A DNA stretch of 64,000 nucleotides from Bacillota bacterium (GTDB lineage: Bacteria > Bacillota > Dehalobacteriia > UBA4068): positions 1,259 to 65,258 of the forward strand of contig JAUNBC010000006.1 in the NCBI GenBank assembly GCA_030527285.1. The letters run 5' to 3'. Within the stretch, counting starts at the first letter, position 1. The number at the start of each line of letters is the position of its first letter. A program made the position numbers and the translations under genes. This document shows positions 4,040 to 60,805 of this stretch, one piece after another. A model generated the notes under the pieces. That model was not told the origin of the DNA. It searched no databases and was given only the letters and a program-made list of their open reading frames with translations.

Positions 4040-4127
4040 ATATGGCAGCCGGCTGTCCTGCTCCCGATGCGGGAGTTTAGACCCTTGGCTTTGCGTCGCG
4101 GCGTTTCCGCCGGTTTGCCTTTTCATC
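4040..4127 (-). promoter_or_regulatory. c-di-GMP-I (GEMM-I) riboswitch aptamer
   Basis: GGCAAACCGGCG-GAAA-CGCCGCGACGCAAAGCC...GGGTCTAA...ACAGCCGGCTGCC matches the GEMM-I consensus; ends about 12 nt before the RBS. Confidence 0.9.
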
Positions 4128-4284
4128 ATTTCGCACGCCAGATAGATTTGACGCGGCTTGATAATAAAACTAACCCTGATATCTGAAATAAACTGCAACG
4201 AGCGACATAATGCTTACTGCGAATAACAAAGAGTATCATTGTAGCGCATACGGCCATACGGGGCGATCCCCCAAGTATGAAGTC

Positions 4285-9167: not shown

Positions 9168-9252
9168 CCCGGCAACCCGGCCGGCATAGGCCCCTGCCCG
9201 TAGCCCCTGTGGCTTTGCGTCGCGGCGTTTCCGCCGTTTTGCCCTTTTCCGT
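9168..9252 (-). promoter_or_regulatory. c-di-GMP-I (GEMM-I) riboswitch aptamer
   Basis: GGGCAAAACGGCG-GAAA-CGCCGCGACGCAAAGCCACAGGGGCTA...GGCCGGGTTGCC; 27 bp (9210-9236) identical to 4086-4112. Confidence 0.88.
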
Positions 9253-9377
9253 ATTCCGCGGCGGCAGATGGGATTTGCCGCCGCCTGTATGTTATAAAAT
9301 TGCCAAAACATGAAACCGATAATTATGTTATGAAGCGCTCAAAAGCCCACGCGGAGACACGCCTCCACTTATGGAAT

Positions 9378-12869: not shown

Positions 12870-14258
12870 TCATTTGCCTTTTAACGCCTGATACAGATGC
12901 ACGTACTTGATCGCCGAGCGCGGATGATCGGAGCGCGCCTCATACTGCTCGCCGCCGGCGCTGAAGGTCAGCAGCATCTGCGATATGGCCGCCATGCCGG
13001 TGATCTCGTCGAGCGCAAAATGGAACTCCCGCGCGCCAGCCCGTCCATAAACGTCGCCATACTGCGTTGCGGCCAAAGACCCGCTGGGGATTTGCGAATT
13101 TTCATACTCCCGCGCGCCAGCCCGTCCATAAACGTCGCCATACTGCGTTGCGGCCAACGACCCGCTTCGGTCACGTACTTTATTATGTACGCTCCCTTGC
13201 AGGTCATTGTCCGCGCCTTGTCTGGCTTGTTTCTGAACGCGCTGGGGGATTAAGGCAAAATGCAGCCCCGCGCGGTCAAGGCTCATCGCGCCCACGCCCA
13301 GCGCGTCGAGCTGCGCGCCGTTGACCCGATACAGGCTCTGCCCGCGCCGCTCGCCGGCCAGCACGCCCGGCCGCCGCTCGATATAGGCGGGCAGCTGCCG
13401 CTGCTGCCAATCGAACCATTGCTGTATGGTGGCAAACGGCGGCTCGCCGCCTTCCGCGGCGGCAAAGCAGCCGTATTCGTCCAGGCGCAAACGCAGGCCG
13501 CAATCGCAAAAAAAGAGGTCGCCGCGGCTGTGCAGGCGGCCGCTCTCGCCGCAGGCCGGACACAGATACAGAGCCGTCTCCAGCGATTCGGCCATTTGCT
13601 CGCCGGGATAGGCCCTGGGCGCGCGCCGCTGGTCTTCATAGAAATCACAATGCAGGTCGCGCTCGATCAGCTCCTGCACCTGCTGATTAGTCATCGCGGC
13701 CAATTCCTCGGGCGCGTACTCATGTATCACCCGGCCGTAAAGACGGCCGCGGCGCTTCTTTTTGGACCAGCGCGGCCATACTAAATAGGCGTCGGAAAGA
13801 CGGTAGGTGATCAGCGCCACGCCGCTCATCCGCGCCAACCGTCCGGCGCTGTCGGCAATGGGCATGGTGCGTCCGCCCCAGGAGCGTTCGCCCTCGATGA
13901 ATATCGTCACCGGATAGCCGGCCTTGAGCACGCGCAGTATCTCCATCGCGCATTGCGCGTCGGTATGCCCCTTGGCGCGCCAGATCGGCCGCTGCAAAAA
14001 CGTGATCAGCCGCCCTATCCAGCCCCAATGGCTGATATGCGCGGAAGCCACGAAGTATGAATGCGCGCGCAGAGAATTGACCACTACCAGCATGTCCATA
14101 TCGGTATAATGATTGGACATCAGCAGGAAGGTCTTATGCCTGGGTATGTATTTATCGCTGCGAAAGCCGATCAGACAATGCGAGATCGCCCGCACCAAAG
14201 GCCGCGCCGCGCGATAAGCAAAGCGATGCCATCTGTTTTGTGCCGCTGTTAGCTTCAT
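12870..14258 (-). CDS. Lysophospholipid acyltransferase (PlsC-like) with a C-terminal Zn-ribbon extension, carrying an in-frame palindromic insertion
   Basis: NHYTDMD (HxxxxD), FIEGERSWGG, LYLCPACG..FFCDCG. Confidence 0.75.
   Translation of the reverse strand: MKLTAAQNRWHRFAYRAARPLVRAISHCLIGFRSDKYIPRHKTFLLMSNHYTDMDMLVVVNSLRAHSYFVASAHISHWGWIGRLITFLQRPIWRAKGHTDAQCAMEILRVLKAGYPVTIFIEGERSWGGRTMPIADSAGRLARMSGVALITYRLSDAYLVWPRWSKKKRRGRLYGRVIHEYAPEELAAMTNQQVQELIERDLHCDFYEDQRRAPRAYPGEQMAESLETALYLCPACGESGRLHSRGDLFFCDCGLRLRLDEYGCFAAAEGGEPPFATIQQWFDWQQRQLPAYIERRPGVLAGERRGQSLYRVNGAQLDALGVGAMSLDRAGLHFALIPQRVQKQARQGADNDLQGSVHNKVRDRSGSLAATQYGDVYGRAGAREYENSQIPSGSLAATQYGDVYGRAGAREFHFALDEITGMAAISQMLLTFSAGGEQYEARSDHPRSAIKYVHLYQALKGK
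13023..13254 (-). mobile_element. Palindromic repeat element inserted in frame in the acyltransferase gene, with a 61-bp 3' part duplicated at an 81-bp period
   Basis: 13205-13239 is the exact reverse complement of 18981-19015; 13025-13085 and 13106-13166 differ by 1 nt. Confidence 0.8.
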
Positions 14259-14375
14259 ATTCACCCGTATATTTCCGACTGCAATTATTTTAGCCCATAG
14301 GCGGCGAAAAAGCAAGGTTTTTGCTCAGGCGTGCTCAGGCGTATTGATTCGCGCCCAACGCGCCTGCGCGCCCAT

Positions 14376-18890: not shown

Positions 18891-18917
18891 CGCATATGCG
18901 CATAATTTATGGCACGC

Positions 18918-18949
18918 AAAAACAGAGAGTCATATGACTCTCTGTTTTT
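18918..18949. terminator. Bidirectional terminator
   Basis: Perfect palindrome AAAAACAGAGAGTCATATGACTCTCTGTTTTT between convergent genes. Confidence 0.85.
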
Positions 18950-18953
18950 TGCC

Positions 18954-19095
18954 GCGCGGCTTATCAATAATATACTATACCGTTCAGAAACAAGCCAGAC
19001 AAGGCGCGGACAATGTCCTGCTATGAAGCATGCTAAAAGGCACGTGACCGACGCCGGGCATTGTCCGTAACGCAGTATGGCGCGGCTTATCAATA
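18954..19095 (+). mobile_element. Second copy of the palindromic element, flanked by a 16-bp direct repeat
   Basis: 35-bp identity plus a shared AACGCAGTATGGCG with the 13123-13239 copy; GCGCGGCTTATCAATA at 18954-18969 and 19080-19095. Confidence 0.78.
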
Positions 19096-19857
19096 CTCCA
19101 GCGGGTCGAGCGCCTCTCCGTTAAGCACTAACTCAAAATGCAAATGGCTGTCCTGCTCCGCCTCGGCCAGCGGCGGCTCGCCGACGCTGCCGATAATATC
19201 GCCGGCGCGGACAACGTCGCCGACCGCCGCCTGCACCGTGATACCGCGATAGACGCTGCATAAGCCCGCGCCATGATCGAGGACGATCACCCCGCCCCAG
19301 ATCCTGTCGTCGGCAGCCTCGCTGACCACGCCGTCGGCGGCGGCATAGACTGCGGCTCCGGCAGCGGCGGCCAGATCGACGCCGCGATGATAGCGCCAAT
19401 CGCCGAAAAAGCTCTCGTAGCAGTAGCCGACTCCGCGCAGCAGCTCGCCTTGCAGCGGCAGGCTGTAATCAAGCTCCGCGGGCAGCGTCCGCGCATCCGC
19501 GCCGTCATCCCCGTCCGCGGCGGCGGTATCGGTCGCGGTGGCGGTATCGGCCGCGCCATCCTCGGGCGTAGCGCCGTCCTCGGGCGCGGCGGCAGCGCCG
19601 TCAACGGCGGCCATGGCGGCGGCCGCCTGCTGCTGGTCTAACTGCTGATCCAGCTCCGCCGCCAGACGCAGCGTTTCGGCGTCCTCGGCGGAAAGCTGCT
19701 CGGACGGCTCGCCGCGCCAGAGCTGCGGGTTGGCATAACTGACCAAGGCGATCAGCAAAACTATCACGCCGATGGTAGCGCCCCAACGCGCCGGCTCGGA
19801 GACGCGCCAGCGCAGCCAAACGCCGCTCCCTTTTTGTTTGCGATCGAATAAGACCAT
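19090..19857 (-). CDS. Membrane-anchored M23 family peptidase (SpoIIQ-like architecture)
   Basis: N-terminal TM helix, acidic linker, HRGVDL and HLHFE motifs. Confidence 0.8.
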   Translation of the reverse strand: MVLFDRKQKGSGVWLRWRVSEPARWGATIGVIVLLIALVSYANPQLWRGEPSEQLSAEDAETLRLAAELDQQLDQQQAAAAMAAVDGAAAAPEDGATPEDGAADTATATDTAAADGDDGADARTLPAELDYSLPLQGELLRGVGYCYESFFGDWRYHRGVDLAAAAGAAVYAAADGVVSEAADDRIWGGVIVLDHGAGLCSVYRGITVQAAVGDVVRAGDIIGSVGEPPLAEAEQDSHLHFELVLNGEALDPLEY

Positions 19858-57793: not shown

Positions 57794-60700
57794 ATGACAA
57801 ATAGAACCGATCTCATGCAGCCGCCGTCGTTCGCGGAACTGCTGCGCTGGCTGCGCGGCGAGTATCAGCGCCGGGGCACGGTATTCGGCGTTAAGCCCGT
57901 ACCCCAGTCCGCGCGCCATATCAGGCTGTACGATACGCCGGGACAGGGGTCCCCGCACGGCACAAAGCGCAGCGACTGCCGGGTGGGGTTTGGCCATGAC
58001 GCCGTTTATGGACAGTCTCTCGTCCAGTTAGACAACGTAATAGGCCCCGCCGCCGGCCCCCACAGCCAGTTAGCCCCCAACATCATCGCCGCCTATGCCG
58101 CCGGCGCGCGCTTCTTTGAGCTGAAAACCGTACAGGTGCTCGACGGCGAGGACTTGCCGGTGGCCAAGCCCTGCATCAGCGCCGCCGACGAGGGCTATAA
58201 TGTCGAGTGGTCGACTGAATTGACCGTAGAGCAGGCGCTGGAGGAATATATCAAGGCGTGGTTCGCGCTGAAGCTGATCAGCCGTGAATGGCAGCTCGGC
58301 GATACGGACGGCTTCGCCTTCAATATCAGCGTCGGCTATGACTTGGACGGCATCCGTTCGCCCAAGGTGGACGGCTTCATCGAGGCGATGAAAAACGCCG
58401 CCGCTACGCCGGTCTGGCAGGAATGCCGCGCACAGGCGCTGGCTCTGAGCTGGCGGCGGCTTGACGCGGACTATATCGAGGCCGTCAGCCCGCGCGTCTG
58501 CTCGTCGGTGACGCTGTCAACGCTGCATGGCTGCCCGCCGGAGGAGATCGAGCGCATCGCCGCCTATCTGCTTGGCGAAAAGGGGCTTAACACCTATATC
58601 AAATGCAATCCGACGCTGCTCGGCTATGATTTCGTGCGCCGGCGCTGCGCCGAGCTCGGCTACGGCTATCTGCGCTTCGACGATCATCATTTCCGCGAGG
58701 ATCTGCAATTTGCCGACGCGCTGGCGCTGATCGCCCGCCTGCGCGCGCTGGCGGCGGAGTTGGGTCGGCAATTCGGGCTCAAGCTCTCGAATACGCTGCC
58801 GGTACAAAACGACGGCCGGACGCTATCCGGCGATGAAATGTATATGTCGGGGCGGGCGCTGTTCCCGCTGACCGTGGAGCTGGCGGCGCGCCTGCATCAT
58901 GCCACCGCCGGCGGCGCGCTGCCCGAGCTGCCGATCTCCTTCTGCGGCGGGGCGGACGCGCATAATATCGCCGCTCTTGCCGCCTGCGGCGTCAAGCCGG
59001 TCACCGTCGCCACCACGCTGCTCAAGCCGGGCGGCTATCAGCGGCTCAGCCAGCTGGCGGAGCTGCTGGACGGCGTCAGCCTGCCGTCCGCCATCGACGG
59101 CGCGGCGCTGTCCGCGCTGGCCGCCGCCGACGACGGTTATTACCGTCAGCCGCCGCGCCGTGAGCCTGCCGCCGCGCTGCCCGGCGCGCCGCCGCTGCTC
59201 GATTGCTTTGCCGCGCCCTGCGTGCAGGGCTGCCCGATACGGCAGCAGATACCCGCCTATCTGCGCGCGCTGGCAGCCGGCGATACGCCCGCCGCGCTGC
59301 GCATCATCAGCGAGCGCGACCCGCTGCCGCATCTGACCGCCGCGCTGTGCCCGCATCGCTGCACCCTCTCCTGCAATCGCCGCTTTTATGAGCGGGCCGT
59401 AGACATTCGCGGCTGCAAGCTGGCCGCCACGGCTGCGGCGGCCGCCATACTGCCCGAGCTGAGCTCGCCCGCGTACAATGGCCGCAAAGCTGCGGTGATC
59501 GGCGGCGGCCCCGCCGGTATGGCGGCGGCGATACTGCTGGCGCGAGAGGGATGGCAGGTGACGCTGTTCGAGCAAAGCGGCAGCCTGGGCGGCTTGGTGC
59601 GTCATACCATACCCGATTTCCGCATCAGCGGCGCGGCCATCGACGCGGACGCGGCGCAATTAACGGCGCTCGGCGTGGAGCTGCGCCTGCATACGCGCAT
59701 CGACGACCTGCAACAGCTTGCCGGCGGCGGCTATCAGCTGCTGATACTGGCCGTGGGCGCGGCCAAGCACGGCCAGCTGCGCCTCGCCGGAGGGCCAGCG
59801 CTCAACGCCGTCGATTTCCTGACGCGGCTGAAGAGCGGCGAGACGATGCGCTTAGGCAAGCATGTCGCGGTGATCGGCGGCGGCAATTCGGCCTTTGACG
59901 CGGCGCGCGCCGCCCGCCGTCTGCCCGGCGTGGACAGCGTCACCGTCGTCTACCGGCGCGACGTGGAGCAAATGCCGGCGGCGCTGGAGGAATTGCGGCA
60001 GGCTCTGGACGAGGGCGTGCGCTTCCTGCCGCTATGCTCGCCGTCCGCGCTCGCGGACGGGCTGCTGCATTGCGAGAAGACGCGGCTCGGCGCGGCGGAC
60101 GCTTCCGGACGCGCCGCCTTTTCCGCCAGCGGCGAGACGCTGGCTCTGCCCTGCGACAGCGTGATCGCCGCCGTGGGCGAGCAGATCGACGGCGAAGCAT
60201 ACCGCCGTCTCGGCATCGTTTGCGATGAGCGCGGCTATCCGCTGCTCGACGGCGATAACCGCGCCGTCTGGGACGCGGCGCATCAACAACTGCCGCCGCT
60301 GTACGTCATCGGCGACGGCGCGCGGGGTCCGGCGACTATTGTCGAGGCCATCGCCGACGCGCATCGGGCGCTGGGACATGACTTGAGCGCGCGCGGCAGC
60401 AACGCCGCTCATACCGGGCAAGCGCCGCGCGGCTACCTTGCGCCGCCCCTGCCGCAGGACGAGGCGCGCTGCCTCGACTGCGATACGCTATGCGCGCAAT
60501 GCGTGGAAAGCTGCCCCAATCGCGCCAATCTGCTGATCGAGGGCGCGGGCGGGCGGCAGATCCTGCATTTGGACGCGCTGTGCAATGAATGCGGCAACTG
60601 CGCCGCCTTTTGCCCCTATGAGGGCGCGCCGTACCGCGATAAGCTGACGCTATTCGCCGACCGCGCCGCTTTTAACGCCTCGGAGAATTACGGCTTCCTG

Positions 60701-60805
60701 CCGCTGGGCGGCGGCGAATACCTGCGCCGTCTGCCGGAGCATACCGATATTCAGGCATTACTGCATGACATAGAGCAGTTCTATCCCTATATCCTGCCGG
60801 AATAA
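57794..60805 (+). CDS. ygfK: Putative selenate reductase subunit YgfK-like Fe-S/flavin oxidoreductase
   Basis: GPAAGPHSQLA, ELKTVQ, KCNPTLLG, LKLSNT, YMSGRAL, GGGPAG, CAQCVESCPNRAN; RBS AGGAGG. Confidence 0.9.
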   Translation: MTNRTDLMQPPSFAELLRWLRGEYQRRGTVFGVKPVPQSARHIRLYDTPGQGSPHGTKRSDCRVGFGHDAVYGQSLVQLDNVIGPAAGPHSQLAPNIIAAYAAGARFFELKTVQVLDGEDLPVAKPCISAADEGYNVEWSTELTVEQALEEYIKAWFALKLISREWQLGDTDGFAFNISVGYDLDGIRSPKVDGFIEAMKNAAATPVWQECRAQALALSWRRLDADYIEAVSPRVCSSVTLSTLHGCPPEEIERIAAYLLGEKGLNTYIKCNPTLLGYDFVRRRCAELGYGYLRFDDHHFREDLQFADALALIARLRALAAELGRQFGLKLSNTLPVQNDGRTLSGDEMYMSGRALFPLTVELAARLHHATAGGALPELPISFCGGADAHNIAALAACGVKPVTVATTLLKPGGYQRLSQLAELLDGVSLPSAIDGAALSALAAADDGYYRQPPRREPAAALPGAPPLLDCFAAPCVQGCPIRQQIPAYLRALAAGDTPAALRIISERDPLPHLTAALCPHRCTLSCNRRFYERAVDIRGCKLAATAAAAAILPELSSPAYNGRKAAVIGGGPAGMAAAILLAREGWQVTLFEQSGSLGGLVRHTIPDFRISGAAIDADAAQLTALGVELRLHTRIDDLQQLAGGGYQLLILAVGAAKHGQLRLAGGPALNAVDFLTRLKSGETMRLGKHVAVIGGGNSAFDAARAARRLPGVDSVTVVYRRDVEQMPAALEELRQALDEGVRFLPLCSPSALADGLLHCEKTRLGAADASGRAAFSASGETLALPCDSVIAAVGEQIDGEAYRRLGIVCDERGYPLLDGDNRAVWDAAHQQLPPLYVIGDGARGPATIVEAIADAHRALGHDLSARGSNAAHTGQAPRGYLAPPLPQDEARCLDCDTLCAQCVESCPNRANLLIEGAGGRQILHLDALCNECGNCAAFCPYEGAPYRDKLTLFADRAAFNASENYGFLPLGGGEYLRRLPEHTDIQALLHDIEQFYPYILPE

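Follow-up and report, generated by a model that had tools for sequence, protein, structure and literature searches.

A hairpin repeat, probably mobile, read in frame as a head-to-tail pair within an acyltransferase gene of an uncultured Clostridia bacterium

How does the gene of a conserved enzyme come to read through a long palindromic repeat without losing its frame, and what kind of DNA is that repeat? The question is raised by a PlsC-type (lysophospholipid) acyltransferase gene at 12870..14258 on the minus strand of a 64,000-nucleotide window (the whole stretch of DNA analyzed here, from contig JAUNBC010000006.1 of the Bacillota bacterium assembly GCA_030527285.1), in which an earlier note had recognized a palindromic element inserted in frame. 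The identity of the host gene is given by its Pfam PF01553 match (E 4.8e-13), by the columns of the HX4D motif (N49-H50...D55), which are invariant in an alignment with nine database homologues, and by the PlsC-like fold of its N-terminal part (Foldseek match to PlsC 5KYM, E 1.3e-7). The same alignment shows a CPAC...CDCG zinc ribbon followed by a C-terminal domain, for which Foldseek returned only weak matches to PH-like folds. The insert very probably represents a nonautonomous mobile hairpin repeat of ~140-150 nt that entered the gene in sense orientation and in frame, as a head-to-tail pair.

The insert comprises 232 nt (window 13023-13254, minus strand) and adds some 75 to 80 residues. 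Alignment of the nine database homologues (38-45% identity) opens a 70-75-column gap exactly between GLHFAL and FHFALDEI, and the same gap occurs in three orthologues from the same taxonomic family; the insert is thus missing from all 12 homologues aligned. The same-family orthologues have open frames of 289-428 amino acids (aa) versus 484 aa here. The source annotation places an ATG start at 14258, yielding 462 aa, and an alternative TTG start lies upstream at 14315; the open reading frame (ORF) 12870..14315 (-) is stop-free across the insert region. The insert has a codon score of 0.03 per codon and a third-position GC content (GC3) of 0.59. Its flanks within the gene score 0.26 and 0.54 per codon, with GC3 of 0.76-0.78, and resemble other genes (genome mean 0.33 +/- 0.08), which indicates that noncoding sequence is being read in frame. 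Counting the putative flanking duplication described below, the added DNA amounts to 240 nt, which is divisible by three, and the sense frame used is stop-free, so the gene reads on into its conserved C terminus. The long hairpin noticed earlier from the letters alone proved sound: across 13015-13262, the folding energy is -104.4 kcal/mol for the sense (minus) strand (z = -3.9), a value that 0 of 200 shuffles attain, versus -81.4 kcal/mol for the plus strand (z = -0.66).

In sense-strand order, the insert consists of two element copies bracketed by an 8-nt repeat: CATTTTGC, copy 1, copy 2, CATTTTGC. The upstream CATTTTGC (13255..13262, minus strand) encodes H-F-A of the first HFAL, and the downstream one (13015..13022, minus strand) encodes H-F-A of the second. 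Copy 1, a long form (13107..13254, minus strand), is the complete long hairpin with a shortened 5' leader; it runs CTTAATCCCC-CAGCGCG...GGGCTGGCGCGCGGGAG from window position 13254 to 13107, is matched by the family covariance model at C31:14365-14507 in contig coordinates (126.8 bits; nhmmer E 3.7e-36), and is 92% identical to its nearest other copy, C21:41336-41467. Copy 2, a short form (13023..13106, minus strand), reads TATGAAAATTCGCAAATCCCC-AGCG joined to GGTCTTTGGCC...GGGCTGGCGCGCGGGAGTTC from 13106 to 13023; it retains the full leader (13086-13106), a 5' stub AGCG, and the 3' 57 nt, with GGGAGTTC at its end.

This anatomy revises one point of the earlier note, which had taken the element to be partly duplicated. 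The 61-nt direct repeat itself stands: 13025-13085 and 13106-13166 are 98% identical (one base differs) with a period of 81 nt. A simple 81-bp tandem duplication is ruled out because the 20 nt separating the repeats occur once within the insert, have no second copy beside the repeats, and match the 5' leader of other family copies (e.g., TCCGAAAACTCGCACATC, GTCCGAAAACTAACTAATCCCCC, and GTCGAAAAGCACGCAACTCCCCC). The leader of copy 2 resembles those of copies C5a, C36, C4b, C4a, and C6b. Copy 2 is therefore a second element that lost its interior between two AGCG motifs, its join being an AGCG microhomology. Comparable short forms made of leader and 3' end are found at C4:41221, C27:40572, and C21:1042, and head-to-tail pairs and arrays are frequent in the family (C17, C27, L021, L060, and G046). 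The pair in the acyltransferase gene may have arisen as a tandem or concatemeric insertion and not through later slippage.

The flanking 8-mer, GCAAAATG on the plus strand, occurs at 13015 and 13255, 240 nt apart, as had been pointed out with the suggestion of a target duplication. Insertion probably duplicated an 8-nt target, CATTTTGC, which forms part of a small palindrome, GCATTTTGC, and the duplicated target would provide an HFAL strand on either side of the loop. We consider this origin of the repeat fairly likely; its plausibility comes from the habit of the family, since members in a related genome carry duplications directly after their 3' end.

An AlphaFold model of the insert-bearing protein, built on the homologue alignment, has a mean predicted local distance difference test score of 80.8, with residues 352-407 below 50, and places the insert between strands 331-337 (GLHFALI) and 410-415 (REFHFA) of a C-terminal beta sandwich plus helix. 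The insert peptide (~75 residues) is hydrophilic and rich in Gly, Ala, Gln, and Arg; it contains, for example, QGADNDLQGSVHNK and SGSLAATQYGDVYGR. The insert is predicted to be a disordered surface loop between two strands of the noncatalytic PH-like domain. Judging from its sequence, the acyltransferase is probably made with the insert and still works. The opposite outcome, a real insertion that inactivated the gene and left a young pseudogene whose open frame is a recent accident, seems unlikely, although several features would suit it: a canonical 231-aa PlsC paralogue is present in the same genome (C25:6681-7136), a beta hairpin in the C-terminal domain is interrupted by the insert, the insertion looks young in that its two copies are 98% identical, and stops are absent from two of the insert's three sense frames, so that an open frame is not improbable. 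However, the 462 codons contain no frameshift or stop, the catalytic and C-terminal motif columns are conserved, and the remainder of the protein is modeled with high confidence. Moreover, both intragenic insertions in this genome are in frame and stop-free, as purifying selection would leave them.

Several considerations weigh against the account given so far. Since a PlsC paralogue is present, the cell may be able to dispense with the acyltransferase gene and merely tolerate the insertion, and an mRNA hairpin of about -100 kcal/mol could reduce expression or draw RNase III. As to the target duplication, 8 nt lies at the short end of the family range, element boundaries are fuzzy in this genome, and a duplication-free protein alignment is possible, DRAGLHFAL plus FHFALDEI having the loop length of one homologue. 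The sequence comes from a single metagenome-assembled genome (MAG; 1.63 Mb, 81.6% complete, 40 contigs, short reads), the 90% protein cluster of the acyltransferase has one member on one contig, and two metagenome scans gave 0 matches to either the gene flank or the empty site, whose expected sequence is GGGCTGCATTTTGCGCTCGAC; population frequency and the exact 81-nt structure thus rest on one assembly. Such a fragmented short-read assembly, a family that is multicopy in the genome, and an acyltransferase protein without an independent assembly would all fit an artefact, in which reads of other copies were misjoined into the gene to produce the 81-nt partial duplication or even the whole insert. 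We nevertheless hold this to be very unlikely. Within a 91-kb contig, the insert is bordered on either side by unique gene sequence, the frame continues to the conserved C terminus, and the 61-nt repeats, which differ by a single base, enclose a unique 20-nt leader. A chimera with another locus would yield a different sequence, since even the closest of the other copies is only 92% identical, and the 159 nt of copy 1 plus duplication and the 81 nt of copy 2 are both divisible by three.

Searches with blastn, nhmmer, and a covariance model derived from 11 copies place the insert in a repeat family. The genome of the window (G000) holds 26 covariance-model matches, of which only the acyltransferase copy lies wholly inside a gene by crude gene calls; with short fragments included, only the acyltransferase gene and a ygfK-like gene hold internal inserts, i.e., two intragenic events overall. 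The element is one long imperfect hairpin with terminal inverted repeats (outer stem CCAGCGCGTTCAGAAAC / GTTTATGGACGGGCTGG, CAG...CTG termini), and this hairpin is conserved: 92.5% of cells are paired and 20 of 34 pairs have changed on both sides, values that 0 of 500 shuffles reach, with slid controls only 20-44% paired. Coding capacity is not a family trait, as the insert frame used in the acyltransferase gene is open in 9 of 24 copies, stops occur in most frames of most copies, and no consistent ORF emerges. Long open frames across C21:41332 and C4:12006 were set aside because on reading they look like antisense translations, and a frame spanning copy L026 has no Pfam match. Within the same taxonomic family, 12 of 32 genomes and 8 of 18 genera carry the element, with 0-26 matches per genome and a patchy copy number (25 versus 1 in one genus and 20 versus 0 in another). 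A pattern scan of 185,579 species genomes yielded 44 loci. Each belongs to a MAG of uncultured Clostridia from a gut-type sample, the labels being Peptococcaceae UBA4068/UBA5757, Christensenellaceae, Clostridia, and similar.

Within the window, the intergenic sibling that the earlier note had located near 18981 is a genuine member, occupying 18955..19111 on the plus strand (model match 18971-19111; 83% identity over 112 nt). It is flanked by a 16-nt direct repeat, GCGCGGCTTATCAATA, at 18955-18970 and 19081-19096. The right repeat holds the stop codon of a convergent gene (19090..19857, minus strand), sits at the usual position of the element's 3' end, and resembles that end at 12 of 16 positions; the sibling may therefore have inserted where the target was homologous to the element end. 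Elsewhere in this genome, a 9.3-kb contig (C17) carries four copies in a 4-kb stretch (at 1024, 1181, 2498, and 4480), all antisense to the genes and located between groES and genes of type IV pilus type.

Strong covariation of the stem would also be expected of a structured RNA gene or a cis-regulatory RNA, with a function at the RNA level and not as mobile DNA, and the earlier note had likened the element to the Clostridiales-1 RNA motif. That likeness was not borne out: an Rfam cmscan of 12900-13400 and 18900-19150 found no family overlapping either copy even at E <= 10, and the element is thus not Clostridiales-1. The sense strand does fold somewhat better than its complement in 14 of 18 copies here and in 5 of 5 in a relative, but the mean difference across the family is only ~5 kcal/mol, large as it is for the acyltransferase copy, and is not strong evidence for an RNA stage. 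Several features of the copies speak against a function in RNA: they are flanked by duplicated target sequence, their number varies abruptly between sister species, antisense orientation to neighboring genes outnumbers sense orientation among intergenic copies, truncated and nested copies exist, and copies in convergent gaps, too, are oriented by the replication strand (9 to 1). An RNA-level function of the element is accordingly highly improbable, and we return to mobile DNA.

If the element is mobile, how does it insert? The signature was read in a related genome, G010 (UBA4068, 98% complete), where element ends are sharp. Copies there start near CAGACTGTCAAAAAAGTG and end in ...GTTTATCGACACGCTG, with the duplicated target directly after the 3' end. 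On a 567-kb contig (C14), target duplications of 9-29 nt accompany 15 of 19 copies (lengths of 9, 9, 10, 11, 11, 12, 13, 13, 14, 22, 23, 24, 25, and 29 nt) and are mostly terminator hairpins, whole or in part. Of 72 copies, 19% have a flanking repeat of 10 nt or more, versus 0.6% in a mismatched-pair control. The two ends behave differently, the 3' ends being precise and the 5' ends varying by a few bases or truncated: G010 has 33 3' ends and 28 5' ends, with five copies truncated at the 5' end and none at the 3' end. One truncated copy has 5 nt of microhomology (CTGTC) at its junction, and another, C14:207257, from which the entire 5' half is missing, still has a duplicated 20-nt hairpin on its flanks. 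Each of the 28 5' ends has a 3' partner within ~0.1-0.42 kb, which indicates that truncation is one-sided and that G010 contains no autonomous version.

The orientation of the copies is also skewed. The plus strand of the 567-kb contig has a negative GC skew throughout and 80% of its genes lie on the minus strand, and 18 copies are on the plus strand and 3 on the minus strand. Ten of these 21 copies occupy convergent gaps, and 9 of the 10 are plus; transcription is symmetrical in such gaps, so the bias follows replication. With only ~1/5 of the genes on the plus strand, the presence of about half of the copies in convergent gaps fits a targeting of terminators. In the genome of the window, the sense strand is the locally C-rich strand in 19 of 24 copies. 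The exceptions to the bias are the acyltransferase copy and an in-frame copy in G010, each co-oriented with its host gene, as expected if only sense-oriented, stop-free insertions survive within genes. The bias could stem from the insertion mechanism or from selection against exposing the better-folding strand on the lagging-strand template.

Candidate enzymes were sought by family. Across the 32 genomes, none of reverse transcriptase (RT; PF00078), DDE_Tnp_1 (PF01609), Y1_Tnp (PF01797), rve (PF00665), or IS110 (PF01548) co-occurs with the element, and none of the five was found in G010. RT presence does not follow element presence (PF00078 was not found in G010, G046, or G014), PF01797 was not found in G000, G010, G046, or G014, and the PF01609 DDE transposase was not found in any element-bearing genome. 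As MAGs can lose multicopy insertion sequence (IS) elements, these absences are suggestive only and no proof. The only RT-like match in the genome of the window is C29:1765-2232 (minus strand; PF00078, E 1.5e-9), in a 658-aa open frame with an rve integrase match nearby (C29:231-566). Genes between clustered copies were considered as transposase candidates and rejected, being housekeeping genes (argG, argF, groES, and pilus genes). No autonomous partner with the same ends was found in G010, where the extra length of some copies is due to nested small hairpin elements.

The signature fits a two-ended cut-and-paste transposase poorly and resembles a 3'-primed copy-in. With no RT found, either single-stranded DNA would have to serve as template or the enzyme was left unbinned. 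A 3'-end-primed, replication-coupled insertion of a kind undescribed for bacterial mobile DNA is a tentative proposal that we think has a modest chance of being right. Under such a mechanism, the nascent strand would stall at an extruded terminator or other palindrome and switch to a free single-stranded copy of the element (RNA or DNA), starting from its exact 3' end. Copying would then run toward the 5' end, where it may stop early or jump to a second copy, and the strand would return upstream of the palindrome, so that the palindrome is copied twice. This sequence of events would account for the variable, hairpin-sized duplications, the precise 3' and ragged 5' junctions, head-to-tail pairs such as that in the acyltransferase gene, the replication-strand bias, and the lack of a linked transposase.

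Which known systems does the family resemble? The palindromic elements of Rickettsia (RPE-1 to RPE-10; Ogata et al. 2000; reviews PMC10969869, PMC3184786), invoked as a parallel by the earlier note, are reported in review to be located inside ORFs unusually often and to have an ORF or peptide that is conserved across family members. The comparison is apt at the level of an analogue: both are long-hairpin repeats of ~100-150 nt without a transposase of their own, found in frame in unrelated enzyme genes, and the added peptide is thought to lie where the fold tolerates insertion. The likeness is one of form; the differences are that the host clade is unrelated, that copies here are nearly all intergenic (1 of 26 model matches and two events overall are intragenic), that the present family has no conserved coding frame, and that its target duplications are long and variable. 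As all family matches fall in Clostridia MAGs and not in Rickettsia, it is an RPE analogue and not a member.

Miniature transposable elements with inverted repeats (MITEs) and foldback intergenic repeats, such as Correia/NEMIS, ERIC, RUP, bcr1, and Coxiella QMITE1/2 (PMC3184786, PMC5896051), also share features with the family: they are nonautonomous, shorter than 200 nt, and without coding capacity, have imperfect terminal inverted repeats and a long stem-loop, are mostly intergenic, show nested insertions and insertion hot spots, and occasionally form in-frame gene fusions (QMITE2 and BOX examples). In classical MITEs, however, the transposase sets a fixed, short target duplication, whereas duplications here span 8-29 nt and often comprise a whole terminator hairpin; the 3' junction here is precise and the 5' end ragged or truncated; and many MITEs share ends with an identifiable IS, whereas even the 98%-complete G010 contains no longer element with the same ends. 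In-frame capture of palindromic repeats is therefore already known (RPEs, BOX, ERIC, and QMITE), and the acyltransferase gene is a new instance in a new clade. The family itself departs from classical MITEs in its variable hairpin-sized duplications, end polarity, replication-strand bias, and lack of a partner IS.

Other systems match some features of this signature. Bacterial group IIC introns insert at rho-independent terminator hairpins in a manner linked to replication, but group II introns are not known to leave a target duplication; the present element, by contrast, is ~140 nt long, duplicates its target, and has no match in Rfam, which includes group II intron models, and no RT gene was found in G010, the most element-rich complete genome. 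IS of the IS1634/IS1549 type are autonomous DDE elements whose target duplications are likewise variable and unusually long, but no PF01609 gene was found in the element-bearing genomes, and IS of this type are not known to give 5'-truncated copies flanked by duplications. Repetitive extragenic palindromic (REP/REPIN) sequences mobilized by RAYT differ in that they are palindromes of 20-40 nt, tagged by GTAG/CGTC and accompanied in the genome by a Y1 transposase. Retroposons resembling short interspersed nuclear elements, which insert by target-primed reverse transcription, share the variable-length duplications, the precise 3' junction, and the 5' truncation; they differ in needing an RT, for which G010, G046, and G014 gave no match.

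The acyltransferase gene is not the only one to have gained residues in this way. A second in-frame insertion, at 57938..58024 on the plus strand, adds 87 nt, i.e., 29 residues (PGQGSPHGTKRSDCRVGFGHDAVYGQSLV), to the ygfK-like (oxidoreductase) gene at 57794..60805. In it, a small hairpin element of ~50 nt (57944-57993), itself nested, precedes the large-element 3' end GACGCCGTTTATGGACAGTCT (blastn), and the 29-residue segment is missing from all 12 YgfK homologues. The shared 3' end is read in the same frame in both genes (DAVYGQS versus DVYGRAG). In G010, the in-frame copy (L061:2084-3901, minus strand; C14 ~506865) lies between HGD-D dehydratase and BcrAD_BadFG ATPase (activase) domains of a 605-aa open frame, with a 12-nt flanking duplication, GCTATGTTGCCG, and may have fused two adjacent genes.

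Smaller hairpins accompany the family. The ~50-nt element, CCCCAGGGGTCCCCGCACGGCACAAAGCGCAGCGACTGCCGGGTGGGGTTTGGG, is separate and has eight copies in the genome of the window (C31:59202, C4:53085, C4:42007, C29:61696, C36:15538, C28:7509, C5:49462, and C30:15718). Seven of the eight lie inside full or fragmentary large elements at varying positions, so that it seems to home to the large element; the eighth, in the ygfK insert, lies directly upstream of the large-element 3' end. Many G010 copies (L067-L076; C1, C9, C12, and C14) likewise hold one or two nested small hairpin elements, one of ~70 nt (GACCTAGCTGGCTTTTACCTTGCGGTAAAACC...) at recurrent positions and another of ~85 nt. Apart from the repeats, an Rfam scan of the whole window at the gathering threshold identified two c-di-GMP-I riboswitches on the minus strand (4041-4129 and 9168-9253; 73.9 and 67.2 bits) and one tRNA.

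In-frame capture of mobile repeats is one way in which proteins gain new loops, and two genes in this window, together probably with a third in a relative, provide clear cases outside Rickettsia, in abundant uncultured gut Clostridia. For annotation, such inserts inflate protein lengths and may pass for lineage-specific domains. The repeat family is more interesting than the acyltransferase event itself and, if its mechanism of movement is new, would represent a route for structure-guided DNA insertion.

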